A DNA stretch of 64,000 bases from Gammaproteobacteria bacterium (GTDB taxonomy: Bacteria; Pseudomonadota; Gammaproteobacteria; JAJFKO01), in NCBI GenBank assembly GCA_028284465.1, contig JANQRR010000015.1, positions 17,286 to 81,285 of the forward strand, in the 5' to 3' direction. A model generated the notes under the pieces. The model was given only the letters and a program-made list of their open reading frames with translations, ran no database searches and had not been told where the DNA came from. The translations under genes and the position numbers were made by a program. Numbering within the stretch: the stretch's first letter is position 1; each line of letters opens with the position of its first letter. Positions 22,147-64,000 of this stretch are shown here, one piece after another.

Positions 22147-23313
22147 ATGAAAGTATTAACCGTGTTTGGAACACGTCCTGAAGCGATTAAGCTTGCCCCT
22201 GTGGTCAAGGCATTACAGGAAGTAGAGCAAATACAAAGTTACATTTGTGTCACTGGCCAGCATCGCCAAATGCTCGATCAAATGTTGGCATTGTTTGCCA
22301 TAACGCCTGATTATGATCTGAAGATTATGCGGCCCGGACAAACTCTTACAGATATCACCACAACAATATTACAGAATCTTAAACCGGTGTTAACGAAGCT
22401 TCAGCCTGATTGGATTATCGTTCAAGGTGATACCACAACCGCGTTTGCGGCAGCGCTTGCAGCATTTTATCAACAAATTGCAGTTGCGCATGTTGAAGCG
22501 GGCTTGCGTACGGGTGATCGTTATTCACCGTGGCCAGAAGAAATGAATCGCAAATTAGCGGGGGCTTTAACAACATTACATTTTCCGCCGACAGAACATG
22601 CGGCGCAGAATTTACAACAAGAAAATATTGCTGCAGATTCTATTATTGTTACGGGTAATACAGTGGTTGATGCATTATTGGAAGTCACTACAAAATTACG
22701 CACCGATCAAACCTTAGCGAATCATATCGCGAGCAATTTTCCATTTTTAGATCCAAATAAAAAACTTATTTTAGTGACAGGGCATCGGCGTGAAAATTTT
22801 GGTGGTGGTTTTGACACTATTTGTCAGGCATTAGCTGAGCTAGCGCAAGATGATAACGTGCAGATTGTTTATCCTGTGCATTTGAATCCGCGAGTGCGCG
22901 AACCGGTTAAGCGTATATTAGGCCAAGCAAATAATATTCATTTAATTGAACCATTAGATTATGTGCCTTTTGCATATTTAATGGATCAAGCATATTTAAT
23001 TTTAACGGATTCAGGCGGTATACAAGAAGAAGCGCCTTCGCTAGGCAAGCCAGTGTTAGTTATGCGTAATACTACTGAACGTCCTGAAGGGGTTATGGCA
23101 GGCACGGCAAAATTAGTTGGTACTGATCGAGAAAAGATTGTCTGTGAAACTAAAACGTTACTCAATGATCAACAAGCGTATTTAGCTATGAGTCGCGTGC
23201 ATAATCCATATGGCGATGGTAATGCTGCCAGTCGAATTGTTGATGCGTTATTGTCATATGGACAGACTAGTTCAGATAAACATTCAACAAAAGTGCTGGA
23301 AAAGATTTCATGA
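22147..23313 (+). CDS. wecB: UDP-N-acetylglucosamine 2-epimerase, non-hydrolysing.
   Basis: [19 protein letters not shown]...[27 protein letters not shown]. are WecB/MnaA motifs. Confidence 0.9.
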
Positions 23314-23843
23314 TTAACATTTACAAAGCGATTCAACCCCATTTAGCGAAATGGTTTGGTTTTCCTGAACAAGACACCTTTTGCCAGGTTGCGACTGTTG
23401 ACAAGAATACACCGCGGAATACACCGTGGGTTAGAACCATGCGTATGCATGCATTGTCTGAAGCTGGAGAAGTAACGTTATTAACGCGCACTAACACCGC
23501 AAAATGGCAGCAGCTACAAGCTTGTCCGAATGTTAGCATTTGTTTAGCCTATCCTGGGCATGGGCAAATTATCGCTTCAGGGCTCGCATCATTAAAGACA
23601 ACAAACGATAATGATGTTGCAGTCAAGGCATGTTGGGAAGAATTGCCGGCTACGATCAAGCGTTATTATCCAACTCAAGAACCAGTGACAGTGGTACCAA
23701 AAGATTTCGGCATGATTGTGATTGCTACCACAGTATGGGAAGTATTACAGATCAATGCACAAGATTATTTTCAGAGTCTTAGAACCTTATTCAGTTTTGC
23801 AGGTAATGCTTGGTATGAGCAAGCAGTTCCGGTCACTAGTTAA
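23310..23843 (+). CDS. Pyridoxamine-5'-phosphate-oxidase-like, FMN-binding split-barrel family protein.
   Basis: 177 aa with a general-stress-protein-26/PNPOx-like profile. It overlaps wecB by 4 nt and is co-transcribed with it. Confidence 0.45.
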
Positions 23844-61097: not shown

Positions 61098-62755
61098 CAA
61101 AATATCGCAAAACTTGTGGACGCTATTTACGCACAGTTAAACATTTGCAAGCTCGTCAGATCTACAAGCGAATTCAATATAAAATATCACGGCCTCGACC
61201 TGATTGTCGACCACCACCACAATTACGTGCTTATGCTGGCACATGGCAAACATCAATCGCTAAAAAACCAAGTTATATACCGCCAGCAACCATGACATTA
61301 CTCAATGAAACTCATGAGATCAGTGCACAAACCATTTGGAATGATCCTGAATTAGCATTATTATGGCGTTATCACTTACATTATTTCGATGATTTGCAAG
61401 CAACTAACGCGGCAGAAAAAATCACTGAACATCAAACATTAATTAAACGCTGGATAAGGGAAAATCCTCCTGGTATTGGTTGTGGTTGGCAATCGTATCC
61501 ATTGTCATTGCGAATTGTTAATTGGATAAAGTGGTTGCTAACGGGTAATCTAGCAACAAAAGCTATGCGGCATAGTTTAAGCGTGCAAGTGTGTTATTTG
61601 CGTAGACGTTTAGAATATCATTTGCTAGGAAATCATTTATTAGCAAATGCAAAAGCATTAATTTTCGCAGGTTGTTATTTTCAAGGTAAAGAAGCAGATC
61701 ATTGGTTAAATTTGGGTTTGAAAATCTATCAACGTCAGTTGCGCGAACAAATTCTTGCAGATGGCGGCCACTTTGAACGTAGCCCAATGTATCATAGCCT
61801 GATCCTTGAAGATTTACTTGATGTTATTAATGTATTACACACATATGCGTTGCCAACGCCAGATTATTTATGTCAATCGATCAATGCGATGTTTACTTGG
61901 TTGCAAGCTATGATCCATCCCGATGGGGAGATTGCATTTTTTAATGATTCAACCTTACAGCAAGCACCAACCTTCGCAGAATTGTTAGCCTATGCTAAGC
62001 AATTGGGTAGCCAACCTAAGTTAACGCCAATTTCACCGGCAACGACGTTAGCTCAGACAGGTTTTGTACGAGTAGCACTTGATAGTAATGTATTATTATT
62101 AGATACCGGATCTGTAGGGCCAGCATATTTACCCGGGCATGCACATGCTGGAACATTATCATTTGAATTATCATTAGCGAAACAACGAGTTTTAGTAAAC
62201 TCTGGTACGTCATGTTATCAGCTAAATACATTGCGTGCTTATCAGCGTAGTACTGCTGCGCATAATACTTTAAGTATCGATGGTGAAAATTCTTCTGAAG
62301 TTTGGCATCGATTTCGAGTTGGACGACGTGCGCGAGTTTTTGCAGTTAATGTAGAGCACAATCAAGATGATACGGTTGTTGTGGAGGCAACACATAATGG
62401 CTATCAACATTTGGGTAATGTTATCCATCACCGTCGTTGGCGTGTCAGTGCTGATGAGATGGAAATTAGCGATGAAATTACCGGTGAGGGTGTGCATGAT
62501 GTGCGCTTATGGTATCATCTGCATCCTACATGTAAGGTAGCGCAAATTAAAGGAAATACGGTGATAATTACCACAACATTAGCAAGTGATCGGCATATCG
62601 TTATGGTGTTACCTGAAGATGTTGACATTTCTGTGCAACCTAGCGAATACTATCCCCAATTTGGTGTAGCGGTAGCTAATCAAACTATTGTTGGGGTAAC
62701 GAAAACTCAGTTGCCATATAGCATGATAACAGCAATAACATGGAAACAGCAGTGA
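61091..62755 (+). CDS. Heparinase II/III-like protein, short form (554 aa).
   Basis: WRYHLHYFDDL, SLRIVNWIKW, GGHFERSPMYH, PGHAHAGTLSFEL match the family blocks seen in the other two copies. Confidence 0.65.
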   Translation: MLTKYRKTCGRYLRTVKHLQARQIYKRIQYKISRPRPDCRPPPQLRAYAGTWQTSIAKKPSYIPPATMTLLNETHEISAQTIWNDPELALLWRYHLHYFDDLQATNAAEKITEHQTLIKRWIRENPPGIGCGWQSYPLSLRIVNWIKWLLTGNLATKAMRHSLSVQVCYLRRRLEYHLLGNHLLANAKALIFAGCYFQGKEADHWLNLGLKIYQRQLREQILADGGHFERSPMYHSLILEDLLDVINVLHTYALPTPDYLCQSINAMFTWLQAMIHPDGEIAFFNDSTLQQAPTFAELLAYAKQLGSQPKLTPISPATTLAQTGFVRVALDSNVLLLDTGSVGPAYLPGHAHAGTLSFELSLAKQRVLVNSGTSCYQLNTLRAYQRSTAAHNTLSIDGENSSEVWHRFRVGRRARVFAVNVEHNQDDTVVVEATHNGYQHLGNVIHHRRWRVSADEMEISDEITGEGVHDVRLWYHLHPTCKVAQIKGNTVIITTTLASDRHIVMVLPEDVDISVQPSEYYPQFGVAVANQTIVGVTKTQLPYSMITAITWKQQ

Positions 62756-64000
62756 ACATATTATTCTTAAGTGACAATTTTCCACCTGAAAATAATGCGT
62801 GTGCCACGCGAGTTTATGAACGAGCATGCTATTGGGTAAAATGGGGGCATCAAGTTACAGTTATTACTTGTGCACCAAATTTTCCTCGCGGCAAACTCTA
62901 TCCTGGTTATAAGAACAAATGGTATCAAGTTGAAGAGGTAGATGGTATTCGAGTCGTGCGTGTGAAAACATTCATCGCTAAGAATGCGGGATTCTTTTTA
63001 CGGATCATTGATTTTCTATCTTATATGTTTATGGCGGTGATTGCAGGATTATGGCAAACAAAGCCAGATGTTGTCGTTGCTACTTCGCCACAGTTATTTG
63101 CAGCTGTAGGTGGCTGGTTGTTAGCATGCTTTAAGCGAGTGCCATTTGTATTCGAGCTTAGTGATCTGTGGCCAGCATCAATTGCAGCAGTTGGAGCAAT
63201 GCGGCGTCGCTATTGGTTACGCAAGCTTGAACGGTTAGAATTATTTCTATATCGACGCGCCAGAATTATTATTGCTTTATCGCCAGCATTTAAACAAGAT
63301 TTATTAACACGAGGAATTGCGGCTGAAAAAATCAAAGTGGTGATCAATGGTGTTGATAGTCAACGTTATCATCCAGAGCAAACCGATCCGGAATTAGCAA
63401 AACATTATCAGTTAACAGATTGTTTCGTGGTGGGCTACATTGGTACTCACGGAATGGCACATGCGTTACGTAATGTCATGACAGCAGCAGAAATTTTACG
63501 GAATGAATATCCTGAGCAAGCTGCAAATATTCGTTTTATGTTTGTAGGTGATGGCGCGCAGCGCCAAGATTTGATCGCCGAAGCCAAACAACGACAATTA
63601 ACCAATGTGATATTTATTCCCGCAAAGAAAAAAAATGTGATCACTAAATATTGGGGTTTATGTCAAGTCGCTTTAGTCCATTTAAAAGATGATCCTGTAT
63701 TTAGTTCAGTGATCCCGTCAAAAATTTTTGAAGCGATGGGGATGGGTTTGCCGATTTTATTAGCCGCACCACAAGGTGAAGCGAGCAAAATCATTGCTAA
63801 AGAACAGGTTGGGGTGTGGGTAAAACCAGAAGATCCTAAAGCTTTAGTTGCAGCAGTATTGCAATTGCAAGAAGATCAGCAACTTCATAAGCATTATGCT
63901 GAGTGTAGTTTACAAGCAGCTTCGCGTTATAGTCGTGAAACTCAAGCAGAACAAATGTTATTAGCATTACAATCAGTGTTAGATAAAAATGTTAGTGTTA
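62740..64000 (+). CDS. GT4 glycosyltransferase of the WbuB/WbjE type, 3'-truncated by the window end.
   Basis: (METAV)NILFLSDNFPPENNACATRVYERA..., PSKIFEAMGMGLPIL (E-x7-E region). No stop codon occurs before position 64000. Confidence 0.75.
   Translation, partial: METAVNILFLSDNFPPENNACATRVYERACYWVKWGHQVTVITCAPNFPRGKLYPGYKNKWYQVEEVDGIRVVRVKTFIAKNAGFFLRIIDFLSYMFMAVIAGLWQTKPDVVVATSPQLFAAVGGWLLACFKRVPFVFELSDLWPASIAAVGAMRRRYWLRKLERLELFLYRRARIIIALSPAFKQDLLTRGIAAEKIKVVINGVDSQRYHPEQTDPELAKHYQLTDCFVVGYIGTHGMAHALRNVMTAAEILRNEYPEQAANIRFMFVGDGAQRQDLIAEAKQRQLTNVIFIPAKKKNVITKYWGLCQVALVHLKDDPVFSSVIPSKIFEAMGMGLPILLAAPQGEASKIIAKEQVGVWVKPEDPKALVAAVLQLQEDQQLHKHYAECSLQAASRYSRETQAEQMLLALQSVLDKNVSV

Follow-up and report, generated by a model that had tools for sequence, protein, structure and literature searches.

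Introduction

The O antigen of Bordetella bronchiseptica and B. parapertussis, encoded by the wbm and wlb genes, is a homopolymer of 2,3-diacetamido-2,3-dideoxy-L-galacturonic acid and its uronamide (poly-L-GalNAc3NAcA(N)). The proteins WbmF, WbmG and WbmH, all short-chain dehydrogenases/reductases (SDRs), have been proposed to turn uridine diphosphate (UDP)-linked 2,3-diacetamido-2,3-dideoxy-D-mannuronic acid (UDP-D-ManNAc3NAcA) into UDP-L-GalNAc3NAcA, with WbmF acting as the 3,5-epimerase (King et al., PMC2279256). Each of the three genes is needed for O antigen in B. bronchiseptica, and the same study gives the Protein Data Bank (PDB) codes of the proteins, their functions and the residues highlighted in them (PMC2279256). 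The wbm locus also carries three genes for glutamine-dependent amidotransferases, wbmC, wbmI and wbmZ, proposed to make the uronamide (PMC2615507), and its ATP-binding cassette (ABC) transporter genes have been mentioned elsewhere (PMC3849452). The present study describes a surface-polysaccharide locus that resembles this system, found from position 22147 onward in a stretch of 64,000 nucleotides (hereafter the window; positions 17,286 to 81,285 of contig JANQRR010000015.1, assembly GCA_028284465.1) from a gammaproteobacterium of the lineage JAJFKO01.

Other described systems share parts of this locus. The Wbp pathway of Pseudomonas aeruginosa (WbpA/B/E/D/I) is one; P. aeruginosa O5 uses Wzx/Wzy and not an ABC transporter. 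Among ABC-dependent O antigens there is a class, the Klebsiella pneumoniae O2a type, in which export is not gated by the terminal residue. A strain-specific operon of P. aeruginosa PA14, zbdP-hepP, encodes a bi-domain protein of the medium-chain dehydrogenase/reductase and Gfo families and, 8 bp apart, a heparinase-like protein of 550 amino acids (aa) (PMC5732420). The PA14 O antigen contains N-acetyl-alpha-L-galactosaminuronic acid (alpha-L-GalNAcA; PMC2997053), and exopolysaccharide EPS I of Ralstonia contains galactosaminuronic acid (PMC3759889).

The region described here is a surface-polysaccharide gene cluster of at least 45 kb. From 22147 to 64000 and beyond it is probably a single composite locus whose product is a surface polysaccharide linked to undecaprenyl and exported by an ABC transporter, most likely a lipopolysaccharide (LPS) O antigen. 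It appears to be built from three widespread cassettes: a wbm-like core; cassette A, with genes for a bi-domain oxidoreductase (BiOx), a glycosyltransferase (GT)-methyltransferase fusion, a heparinase-like protein (Hep) and an AsnB-like protein; and cassette B, with a WecB/WecC set and BiOx, heparinase-like and GT4 genes of the PA14 zbdP-hepP type. The chain itself, like the Bordetella O antigen, most likely consists of amino-uronic acids that are N-acetylated and amidated. An initial annotation of the same DNA had proposed an ABC-exported chain composed largely of N-acetylated amino-uronic acids, with a capacity for amidation, and the Wzm/Wzt pair, the Wbp-type genes and three AsnB-like genes agree with this. 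The gene inventory for 22147-64000 was built from a listing of open reading frames (ORFs) and from Pfam and NCBIfam profile scans of the window proteins (Table 1); every ORF that had been named earlier was recovered in its place, and the family assignments were backed by these scans.

The wbm-like core

The core spans 28728-43210, and a comparison with Bordetella, which the initial annotation had recommended, matched two of its genes with wbmH and wbmF. In a search of the PDB, the protein encoded from 30199 scored higher against WbmH (355 bits) than against WbmG (288 bits), while the protein encoded from 31223 is about 60% identical to Bordetella WbmF. Alignment to 2pzj shows that the WbmF motifs AGC, FHLATxHGN and RFQNVYGPGE are conserved in the product of 31223-32269; as in WbmF, Ala-Gly-Cys replaces the usual Ser/Thr, and the candidate His and Asn are also kept. 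The two extended SDRs reported earlier are thus both present, but they are not a diverged pair; they are orthologues of WbmH and WbmF. Since they are, the pathway more likely takes the diacetamido sugar beyond D-ManNAc3NAcA to L-GalNAc3NAcA(N) or a stereoisomer, which would then be the end product rather than the D-ManNAc3NAcA-type sugar first predicted, although the route to the latter is present. The earlier chemical prediction is in this way backed and sharpened to a wbm-like system with a likely L-galacto end product. The wbm locus of Bordetella has three amidotransferases, and three AsnB-like genes are thus part of a known pattern.

The two proteins of 468 and 439 aa that had been left as unknowns, U468 and U439, appear from structure prediction to be GT-B glycosyltransferases, of a family for which Pfam and NCBIfam have no model. 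Neither protein matched a Pfam or NCBIfam model at E ≤ 0.001, nor did U468 at E ≤ 1, and PF13524 was matched weakly by 14 of 40 relatives (best E 9e-5). The AlphaFold model of the family, from a 40-sequence alignment that includes U439, is confident (predicted local distance difference test score, pLDDT, 82; predicted template modelling score, pTM, 0.79) and shows the two Rossmann domains of a GT-B fold. The 468-aa protein has 198 homologues, most of them annotated as hypothetical and some fused to GT1-type domains, so that the model offers a fold-level function, glycosyltransferase, for a protein family that pipelines leave "hypothetical."

When one genome per species was scanned, U-family relatives were encoded in 278 loci, of which 78 were fetched and compared by mapping the window proteins on them and counting matches within 10 kb of a family member. 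The 78 loci span Vampirovibrio, Chloroflexota, Planctomycetota, Acidobacteriota, Lachnospiraceae, a Rickettsia and metagenome-assembled genomes (MAGs) of Legionellaceae. An AsnB-like gene is present in 62 of them and at least two are present in 34; at least two U-family genes occur in 46. WbmF and WbmH are both encoded in 35 loci, and AsnB-WbmH(-G)-WbmF form one adjacent run in 26. Wzt was found in 39 loci, the methyltransferase in 25, the WbpI-type epimerase in 22, and WbpD or WbpE in 20. From these counts, the wbm-like core is a widespread conserved cassette whose normal state includes several glycosyltransferase and AsnB copies. The combination of U-family glycosyltransferase and AsnB-WbmH-WbmF run was seen in very distant phyla, often with two to four U-family copies per locus, as in Vampirovibrio (L004), Lachnospiraceae (L048, L050 and L055), Candidatus Rickettsia vulgarisii (L073) and Legionellaceae (L014 and L049), and this suggests that the distribution of wbm-like diacetamido-uronic-acid glycans reaches far beyond Bordetella.

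Three points weigh against the assignment of an L-GalNAc3NAcA(N) chain. The window has a single WbmG/H-type SDR gene (30199), so the stereochemistry of the product could differ. The protein encoded at 38128-39105, in the position of WbpB, had no entry named WbpB or WlbA among its seven PDB matches at E ≤ 1e-15. Instead of making uronamides, AsnB-like enzymes can introduce acetamidino groups, as those of the WbpG type do. The first point also favors a chain of D-ManNAc3NAcA (plus D-ManNAcA) in which the SDRs serve another sugar or a side modification, since Bordetella needs both G and H proteins, as does the presence of a complete route to UDP-ManNAc3NAcA. This alternative is nonetheless unlikely, given the identity of the WbmF orthologue to the Bordetella enzyme and its retention of the proposed epimerase residues. 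The genes wecC-asn1-U468-wbmH-wbmF-asn2 form one tightly packed run on the same strand, which places WbmH-WbmF between U468 and Asn2 in the same transcription unit, and the SDR pair accompanies the U family and AsnB in the 35 loci noted above. Two G/H-type genes are present in 14 of the 38 related loci with WbmH, whereas about 24 have one, as here, which suggests that loci with a single G/H-type gene are a working two-SDR variant.

A full WbpA/B/E/D/I-type set had been assigned to 34155-40805. The diacetamido-uronate route stands, with matches to WbpE (3nyu) and to WbpD/WlbB (3mqg); the supposed WbpB, on the other hand, seems to fall outside the WbpB/WlbA subgroup, and the block also holds a glycosyltransferase gene at 35270-36589. 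The oxidoreductase in question probably belongs to a different Gfo subgroup, nearer the archaeal and GnnA-type UDP-GlcNAc 3-dehydrogenases, and a WbpB role is plausible for it; the order of C3 and C6 chemistry may therefore differ. The proteins encoded from 36767 and 34155, putative counterparts of WbpA and WbpI, are of the superfamilies expected for these enzymes and distinct from WecC and WecB (33-34% identity); the WbpA-like protein fails the WecC cutoff, and both are syntenic with WbpD/E here and elsewhere.

In the pathway proposed for the core, four enzymes would make UDP-GlcNAc3NAcA from UDP-GlcNAc, namely the 6-dehydrogenase, the 3-dehydrogenase of Gfo type, the aminotransferase WbpE and the acetyltransferase WbpD/WlbB, and the WbpI-type enzyme would 2-epimerize this product to UDP-ManNAc3NAcA. 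WbmF and WbmH would carry UDP-ManNAc3NAcA to an L-configured product, expected to be L-GalNAc3NAcA, and Asn2 would amidate C6. Chain synthesis would begin on undecaprenyl phosphate with a WecA-like enzyme encoded just past the window and continue with the two GT-B enzymes of the U family; one or more methyltransferases would modify or cap the chain, and Wzm/Wzt would export it without recognizing a terminal cap. The initial annotation had pointed to a Wzt of 251 aa that lacks a carbohydrate-binding module (CBM) and had argued that chain-length control would not use recognition of a terminal cap. Only an ABC_tran domain was found in Wzt, which aligns over its full length with a 244-position model of Wzt proteins without the C-terminal CBM, unlike the Escherichia coli O8/O9a type; the argument is correct, yet export of this kind was already known. 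Both the free-standing methyltransferase beside wzt and the fusion of GT4 and methyltransferase (GT4::MT) could modify or terminate chains.

The oxidoreductase and heparinase-like cassettes

The window has two BiOx/Hep sets plus a third, lone Hep gene. Cassette A consists of BiOx1, GT4::MT, Hep1 and Asn3, all on the minus strand, and is kept gene by gene in a metagenomic locus (L085) with 59%, 44%, 50% and 63% identity, respectively; counterparts of Asn1 (41%), GT4a (39%) and Hep2 (36%) are also encoded there. It is also present in Pseudomonas chlororaphis (L084), together with a WecC-like gene (60%), a second BiOx, Wzm/Wzt, radical S-adenosylmethionine (SAM) enzymes and methyltransferases. 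Identities across both loci are 44-64%, and ABC transporters are associated with the cassette in each.

Cassette B has the order BiOx2-Hep3-GT4, with the first two genes (58965-61097 and 61091-62755) overlapping by 7 nucleotides (nt). The same order occurs in six outside contexts: Lysobacter capsici, a Methylococcus MAG, a Competibacteraceae MAG, Thermomonas, Spiribacter and Ralstonia. It is followed in the Competibacteraceae MAG by a phosphoglycosyltransferase (PGT) gene, as in the present locus, and a UDP-GlcNAc 2-epimerase gene is inserted between BiOx and Hep in Thermomonas and Spiribacter. A WecB-type epimerase is encoded inside or near the cassette in four of the six contexts. The Lysobacter cluster (L081) has WecB and WecC proteins 61% and 56% identical to those of the window, and direct comparison of ORFs shows that Ralstonia megaplasmids encode WecB/WecC-like proteins (61% and 60%) and, a few kb downstream of these, BiOx (55%), a Hep-like protein and a GT4. 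BiOx and heparinase-like genes lie beside WecB/WecC-type genes at 6751-19221 of a Ralstonia pseudosolanacearum megaplasmid sequence (L090). A PIN/PhdYeFM toxin-antitoxin pair was seen inside the cassette of Thermomonas alba (L086, 13302-13966), between the epimerase and the heparinase-like gene. The wecB and wecC genes of the window itself were correctly named at the outset, as both proteins exceed the curated NCBIfam cutoffs (530 against 210 bits and 593 against 459 bits).

The AlphaFold2 model of Hep1 (pLDDT 91) has the (alpha/alpha)-toroid and beta-sandwich fold of uronate lyases, and its nearest structures in a Foldseek search are heparinase III and lyases of the polysaccharide lyase (PL) families PL15, PL17 and PL33. 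The Asn-His and Tyr-His motifs of the Hep family align with heparinase III. A signal-peptide-like N-terminus was found in none of Hep1, Hep2 and Hep3. A search of the literature on bi-domain oxidoreductases of this kind, and on BiOx, heparinase-like and AsnB-like genes in combination, gave no useful result. The route to N-acetyl-L-gulosaminuronic acid (L-GulNAcA) in the Vibrio cholerae polysaccharide VPS was considered as a parallel and rejected, since the candidate epimerase there, VpsJ, is unrelated.

L-GalNAcA is the 3,5-epimer of D-ManNAcA, which parallels the relation of L-GalNAc3NAcA to D-ManNAc3NAcA. The PA14 and Ralstonia contexts and the chemistry of GalNAcA are the reason for proposing that BiOx and Hep convert UDP-ManNAcA to an L-configured N-acetylhexosaminuronic acid (HexNAcA). 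WecB and WecC would make UDP-ManNAcA, and the two BiOx and heparinase-like sets would convert it to a second L-configured HexNAcA, with L-GalNAcA as the leading candidate. The adjacent GT4 would transfer this sugar, Asn1 and Asn3 could amidate it, and it may serve as a linker, a cap or a second domain. By analogy with the systems named, the BiOx and heparinase-like sets, with their GT4 partners and Asn1/Asn3, thus probably turn UDP-ManNAcA into a second, possibly amidated L-configured HexNAcA and add it to the glycan.

A more general form of this proposal can be put forward only tentatively. The pair of BiOx and a cytoplasmic heparinase-fold protein, present twice here and represented by at least 8000 related protein clusters, may be the missing route from UDP-D-ManNAcA to L-GalNAcA or L-GulNAcA, the lyase fold abstracting the C5 proton in order to epimerize and not to cleave; the U family may likewise be an unclassified glycosyltransferase family that polymerizes L-GalNAc3NAcA(N). 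If so, HepP and ZbdP of P. aeruginosa would be O-antigen biosynthetic enzymes and not a secreted heparinase system, and "Bordetella-type" poly-diacetamido-uronamide glycans would be widespread (Cyanobacteria/Vampirovibrio, Chloroflexota, Planctomycetota, Lachnospiraceae, Rickettsia and Proteobacteria). In any case, the comparative context ties a widespread uncharacterized BiOx/heparinase-like cassette to GalNAcA polymers and yields a testable hypothesis for the synthesis of L-GalNAcA-type sugars.

The case for the epimerase role is lessened by several considerations. The argument takes the operon zbdP-hepP to be located inside the PA14 O-antigen cluster and the GalNAcA of Ralstonia to be the L form. 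In the published accounts examined, no biosynthetic role of ZbdP or HepP was found, and HepP is described as a heparinase and virulence factor. Recombinant PA14 HepP was reported to have heparinase activity and to clear heparin in plate assays (PMC5732420), which fits a lyase as well as an epimerase. This result, together with a fold and motifs shared with PL12/PL15/PL17 lyases, would be expected if the heparinase-like proteins were true polysaccharide lyases that trim, recycle or limit the length of a uronic-acid polymer. Such a function is improbable for proteins that lack signal-peptide-like N-termini and whose genes are consistently located between dehydrogenase and glycosyltransferase genes in biosynthetic operons; a lyase that attacked the cell's own lipid-linked polymer in the cytoplasm would also defeat the purpose of making it.

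Extent of the region and probable unity of the locus

The upstream boundary is clean, with cydBA and comEA preceding wecB. A single locus of more than 41 kb had been reported, and its genes were placed correctly; however, it is split by an island of 4.4 kb (52417-56834) with three genes unrelated to glycan synthesis, and it does not end at 64000. The sequence beyond the window was read from a Logan contig carrying the same DNA (L083), in which 12933-16272 correspond to window coordinates 64023-67362. These additional 3.3 kb or more encode the end of the last GT4 (425 aa), a 507-aa protein, a WecA-like PGT (TIGR02380, 278 bits) and a third NDP-sugar dehydrogenase, which is of the Ugd type and partial at the end of the contig. 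The 507-aa protein has 12 hydrophobic segments, no Pfam match and a faint match to a putative glycosyltransferase family of Leptospira, and is possibly GT-C-like.

Two or three independent adjacent loci, instead of one, are conceivable: a wbm-like O-antigen locus (at about 28.7-43.2 kb) that is complete in itself and includes an ABC transporter, and a separate system with WecB/WecC, BiOx/Hep, GT4, the WecA-like PGT and the 12-segment membrane protein that makes another polymer, a core or a linker. BiOx or Hep genes were found within 10 kb of the family member in none of the 78 U-family loci, so the two systems need not cooperate and may make separate glycans; this counts against a single composite locus, as does the presence of BiOx-Hep-GT4 in Wzx/Wzy-type clusters of Lysobacter and Thermomonas. 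The island also divides the region, and the genes that continue past the window could include another export system. Set against this are the position of WecB, WecC, GT4a and Asn1 upstream of the core, the tight same-strand run that joins wecC and asn1 to it, the linkage of cassette A to ABC transporters elsewhere, and the finding of one Wzm/Wzt pair and one PGT across about 45 kb. Separate loci are therefore a possible but somewhat doubtful explanation, and a single composite locus is the preferred one.

Attachment of the product to LPS, which the composite-locus reading favors, is made less certain in that no WaaL ligase was seen in the locus and the downstream Logan sequence. A group 2/3 capsule system was considered and rejected, since the region has a WecA-like PGT and showed no genes of the KpsC/S/D/E type. 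Scans for promoters and terminators gave results at or below chance level.

Paralogous genes

Almost every function of the locus had been noted to occur in two or three copies, which the initial annotation attributed to an ancient tandem duplication of a whole module. An all-versus-all blastp comparison of the window proteins, in effect the protein self dot-plot that had been suggested as a check, found every claimed pair. Identities are 26-41% over full-length pairs and 23% for the methyltransferase domain: 33% for WecB and the 34155 epimerase, 34% for WecC and the 36767 dehydrogenase, 35-39% among the AsnB copies, 41% for U468 and U439, 27% for the two SDRs, 35% for the GT4 proteins encoded from 23836 and 47288, 35% for BiOx1 and BiOx2, and 26-30% among the heparinase-like proteins.

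Nearly all of these proteins have relatives outside the window that are closer to them than their supposed partners. The best outside identities are 70% for WbmH, 67% for WbmF, 63-64% for Asn3, 61% for WecB, 60% for WecC, about 60% for both BiOx1 and BiOx2, 58% for WbpA, 56-61% for Asn2, 54-56% for U439, 54% for Asn1, 50% for Hep1, 43-47% for WbpI, 46% for Hep3 and 42-47% for U468, all of which exceed the 26-41% found between window partners. In neighbor-joining (NJ) trees that included relatives from the fetched loci, WecB and WbpI, WecC and WbpA, WbmH and WbmF, Asn2 and Asn1/Asn3, and U468 and U439 are not sisters, and every member of these pairs is more closely related to proteins from other phyla than to its partner. 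The curated equivalog cutoffs passed by WecB and WecC are failed by the 34155 and 36767 proteins. Most pairs thus fall into different best-hit families. Hep2 is the sole paralogue that was not placed in an orthologous group, with best outside matches of 33-36%.

Duplication of a whole module followed by divergence might still be argued from the pairs for about ten functions, which show a broadly similar divergence, and from Asn1 and Asn3, which are nearest neighbors in the NJ tree of the small locus data set. The pairs Asn1/Asn3, GT4a/GT4::MT and Hep1/Hep2 also recur as pairs in the metagenomic L085, so that the GT/Hep/AsnB trio occurs twice in both loci, and a very old en-bloc duplication in an ancestor of cassette A is possible. 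An exhaustive search nevertheless found dozens of outside relatives closer to Asn1 than Asn3 is (54% against 38.6%), and the same is true of BiOx2 (about 60% outside, 35% to BiOx1) and Hep1 (50% outside, 30% to Hep2). The supposed modules are not colinear in gene order or strand. A search for DNA self-repeats gave only short matches of 70-92% inside homologous coding motifs, with no insertion sequence elements and no long junction repeats, and related loci as a rule carry several copies of U and AsnB genes. Taken together, these observations make a duplicated module very unlikely and suggest that the locus is a mosaic of old, distinct gene families and not the product of local duplication, which corrects an attractive but wrong evolutionary reading of repeated functions in a glycan locus.

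Gene models and surrounding genes

Some gene starts probably differ from those of the longest ORF. The ORF 47288-50224 is too long at its 5' end: the likely start is an ATG in the same frame at 50035, which overlaps the BiOx1 stop (ATGAATAA) and gives a protein of about 915 aa, close to the 884 aa of the homologue in L085. BiOx1 aligns with BiOx2 only from BiOx1 residue 30, so that translation probably begins near 52313. For U468, public gene calls give a 465-aa form with a later start. The PNPOx-like ORF at 23310-23843 shares 4 nt with the end of wecB (translational coupling), and a homologue of its product was found in none of the related loci examined.

Table 1. Genes of the polysaccharide locus in the window, with the matches on which each assignment is based. 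L080, L081, L084, L085 and L090 denote outside loci used for comparison.
Feature	Coordinates	Strand	Basis
wecB, UDP-GlcNAc 2-epimerase	22147..23313	+	TIGR00236 530 bits (cutoff 210); 61% to epimerases of L081 (Lysobacter) and L090 (Ralstonia), whose clusters also carry BiOx and Hep
PNPOx-like protein, 177 aa	23310..23843	+	PF01243 31 bits; no NCBIfam match
GT4a, GT4 glycosyltransferase, N-terminal extension with two hydrophobic segments	23836..25500	-	Pfam GT4/GT1; 35% to GT part of 47288; 39% to L085 GT
wecC, UDP-ManNAc 6-dehydrogenase	25621..26829	+	NF008286 593 bits (cutoff 459); 56-60% to L081, L084, L090
Asn1, AsnB-like glutamine amidotransferase	26820..28721	+	Pfam GATase_7 and Asn_synthase; outside relatives up to 54%
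U468, putative GT-B fold glycosyltransferase, family without Pfam/NCBIfam model	28728..30134	+	Predicted structure
WbmH-type extended SDR	30199..31158	+	PDB 2q1w (WbmH) 2.6e-105; 2pzk (WbmG) 1.2e-84; up to 70.5% to related-locus genes
WbmF-type SDR, proposed 3,5-epimerase	31223..32269	+	PDB 2pzj (WbmF) 1.8e-138; AGC, His and Asn positions kept
Asn2, AsnB-like amidotransferase accompanying wbmH-wbmF	32230..34179	+	Pfam GATase_7 and Asn_synthase; outside relatives up to 56-61%; adjoins WbmH(-G)-WbmF in 26/78 related loci
WbpI/WlbD-type 2-epimerase	34155..35273	-	PF02350; wecB model 289 bits; 33% to window WecB; 41-47% to epimerases of wbm-like loci
U439, second putative U-family GT-B glycosyltransferase	35270..36589	-	41% to U468; outside relatives up to 54-56%
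WbpA-like NDP-sugar 6-dehydrogenase	36767..38128	+	Three UDPG_MGDP_dh domains; below WecC and TviB cutoffs; 57-58% to genes beside WbpD/E in Planctomycetota loci
Gfo/Idh/MocA sugar 3-dehydrogenase, plausibly in WbpB role	38128..39105	+	Pfam GFO_IDH_MocA; archaeal UDP-GlcNAc 3-dehydrogenase model 175 bits, below cutoff
WbpD/WlbB-type 3-N-acetyltransferase, hexapeptide	39095..39688	+	PDB 3mqg, a lipopolysaccharide acetyltransferase, 1.5e-93
WbpE-type DegT aminotransferase	39693..40805	+	PDB 3nyu/3nu7 (WbpE) 1e-138
Wzm, ABC-2 permease	40802..41605	+	PF01061; NF050109 129 bits, below cutoff; six hydrophobic segments
Wzt, ABC ATPase, 251 aa	41617..42372	+	PF00005 alone, residues 48-178; end-to-end alignment with 244-position Wzt model
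SAM-dependent methyltransferase	42356..43210	+	Pfam Methyltransf_11/25; homologues in 25/78 related loci, up to 54%
Asn3, AsnB-like amidotransferase, last gene of cassette A	43214..45247	-	Pfam GATase_7 and Asn_synthase; 63-64% to L085, L084
Hep1, heparinase II/III-like, predicted cytoplasmic	45225..47291	-	Pfam; AlphaFold2 model and Foldseek; orthologues 40-50%
GT4::methyltransferase fusion, about 915 aa from ATG at 50035	47288..50035	-	Pfam GT4 and Methyltransf_11; 44% over 924 aa to L085 fusion
BiOx1, bi-domain oxidoreductase (Zn-ADH-like and Gfo/Idh/MocA)	50028..52400	-	Pfam ADH_zinc_N and Gfo; 59-61% to L085, L084; 35% to BiOx2
Non-glycan island: CopA-like, double-cupredoxin, 685-aa orphan	52417..56834	+	
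Hep2, heparinase II/III-like	56847..58862	-	Pfam; 30% to Hep1; best outside matches 33-36%
BiOx2, bi-domain oxidoreductase, ZbdP-type architecture	58965..61097	+	Pfam; at least 8000 homologues, best about 60%
Hep3, 554-aa heparinase II/III-like, HepP-type size and position	61091..62755	+	Pfam; PDB heparinase III 3e-11; 45-46% to L080, L081 Hep genes
GT4 (WcaI/WbuB-like), 425 aa in full, crosses window end	62740..64000	+	Pfam, NCBIfam; 52% to GT4 after Hep in L081

The product of the first island gene (52417-54021) is a CopA-like P-type ATPase, 534 aa long and degenerate. Its membrane CPC motif is intact, but DQLGK stands in place of DKTGT and SDGVHNKD in place of GDGxND; the nucleotide-binding domain is missing and only PF00122 was matched, so a working pump is unlikely. 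It is followed by a membrane-anchored 210-aa protein with two Cupredoxin_1 domains (54018-54650) and by a lysine-rich orphan of 685 aa with three hydrophobic segments and no family match (54777-56834).

Upstream of the locus lie cmk, rpsA, lapA and lapB. A block of low GC content at 5000-16050 (0.30-0.34, compared with 0.36-0.42 elsewhere) encodes a 1794-aa tetratricopeptide repeat (TPR) protein, a 719-aa protein without a family and an 890-aa ankyrin-repeat protein, which look like effectors of intracellular Legionellales-type bacteria. A tRNA scan of the window found none. Cmk, RpsA and LapB (479-4955) and CydA (20187-21557) are each alone in their 90%-identity cluster among 15 billion proteins, and therefore the host has no close sequenced relative in that collection.

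Comparison with known systems

The likeness to the K. pneumoniae O2a type is confined to the logic of export: Wzt is short, with a nucleotide-binding domain only, while the sugars, glycosyltransferases and locus content are unrelated, and methyltransferases with the potential to cap the chain are encoded in the window as well. With PA14 zbdP-hepP (by its published description) and the eps genes of Ralstonia solanacearum, the window shares a gene for a bi-domain oxidoreductase of about 710 aa immediately followed by one for a heparinase II/III-like protein of about 550 aa. In the window, in Lysobacter and in Ralstonia, the next gene encodes a GT4, and genes of the WecB/WecC type lie close by; PA14 and Ralstonia both make a GalNAcA-containing polymer. 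The P. aeruginosa Wbp pathway is matched by the WbpE protein (1e-138) and by the presence and adjacency of a WbpD-type acetyltransferase, a 6-dehydrogenase and a 2-epimerase, and differs in that the enzyme in the WbpB position seems here to be outside the WbpB/WlbA subgroup.

The resemblance to the wbm and wlb genes of B. bronchiseptica and B. parapertussis is broader, as it includes WbmF and WbmH orthologues, a WlbB/WbpD-type acetyltransferase, three AsnB-like amidotransferases, ABC export and a predicted chain of diacetamido uronic acid or uronamide. The two differ in that the window has one G/H-type SDR where Bordetella has two, apparently takes its 3-dehydrogenase from another Gfo subgroup, carries the precursor (Wbp/Wlb) genes inside the locus, and adds WecB/WecC and two BiOx/heparinase-like cassettes; the deamidase WbmE was not identified among the window genes. 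The host is also different, being a low-GC, Legionellales-looking gammaproteobacterium. The wbm-like core thus places a Bordetella-type diacetamido-uronic-acid O-antigen system, as predicted from its genes, in a Legionellales-like bacterium, and the same core cassette is found in hundreds of species across phyla.

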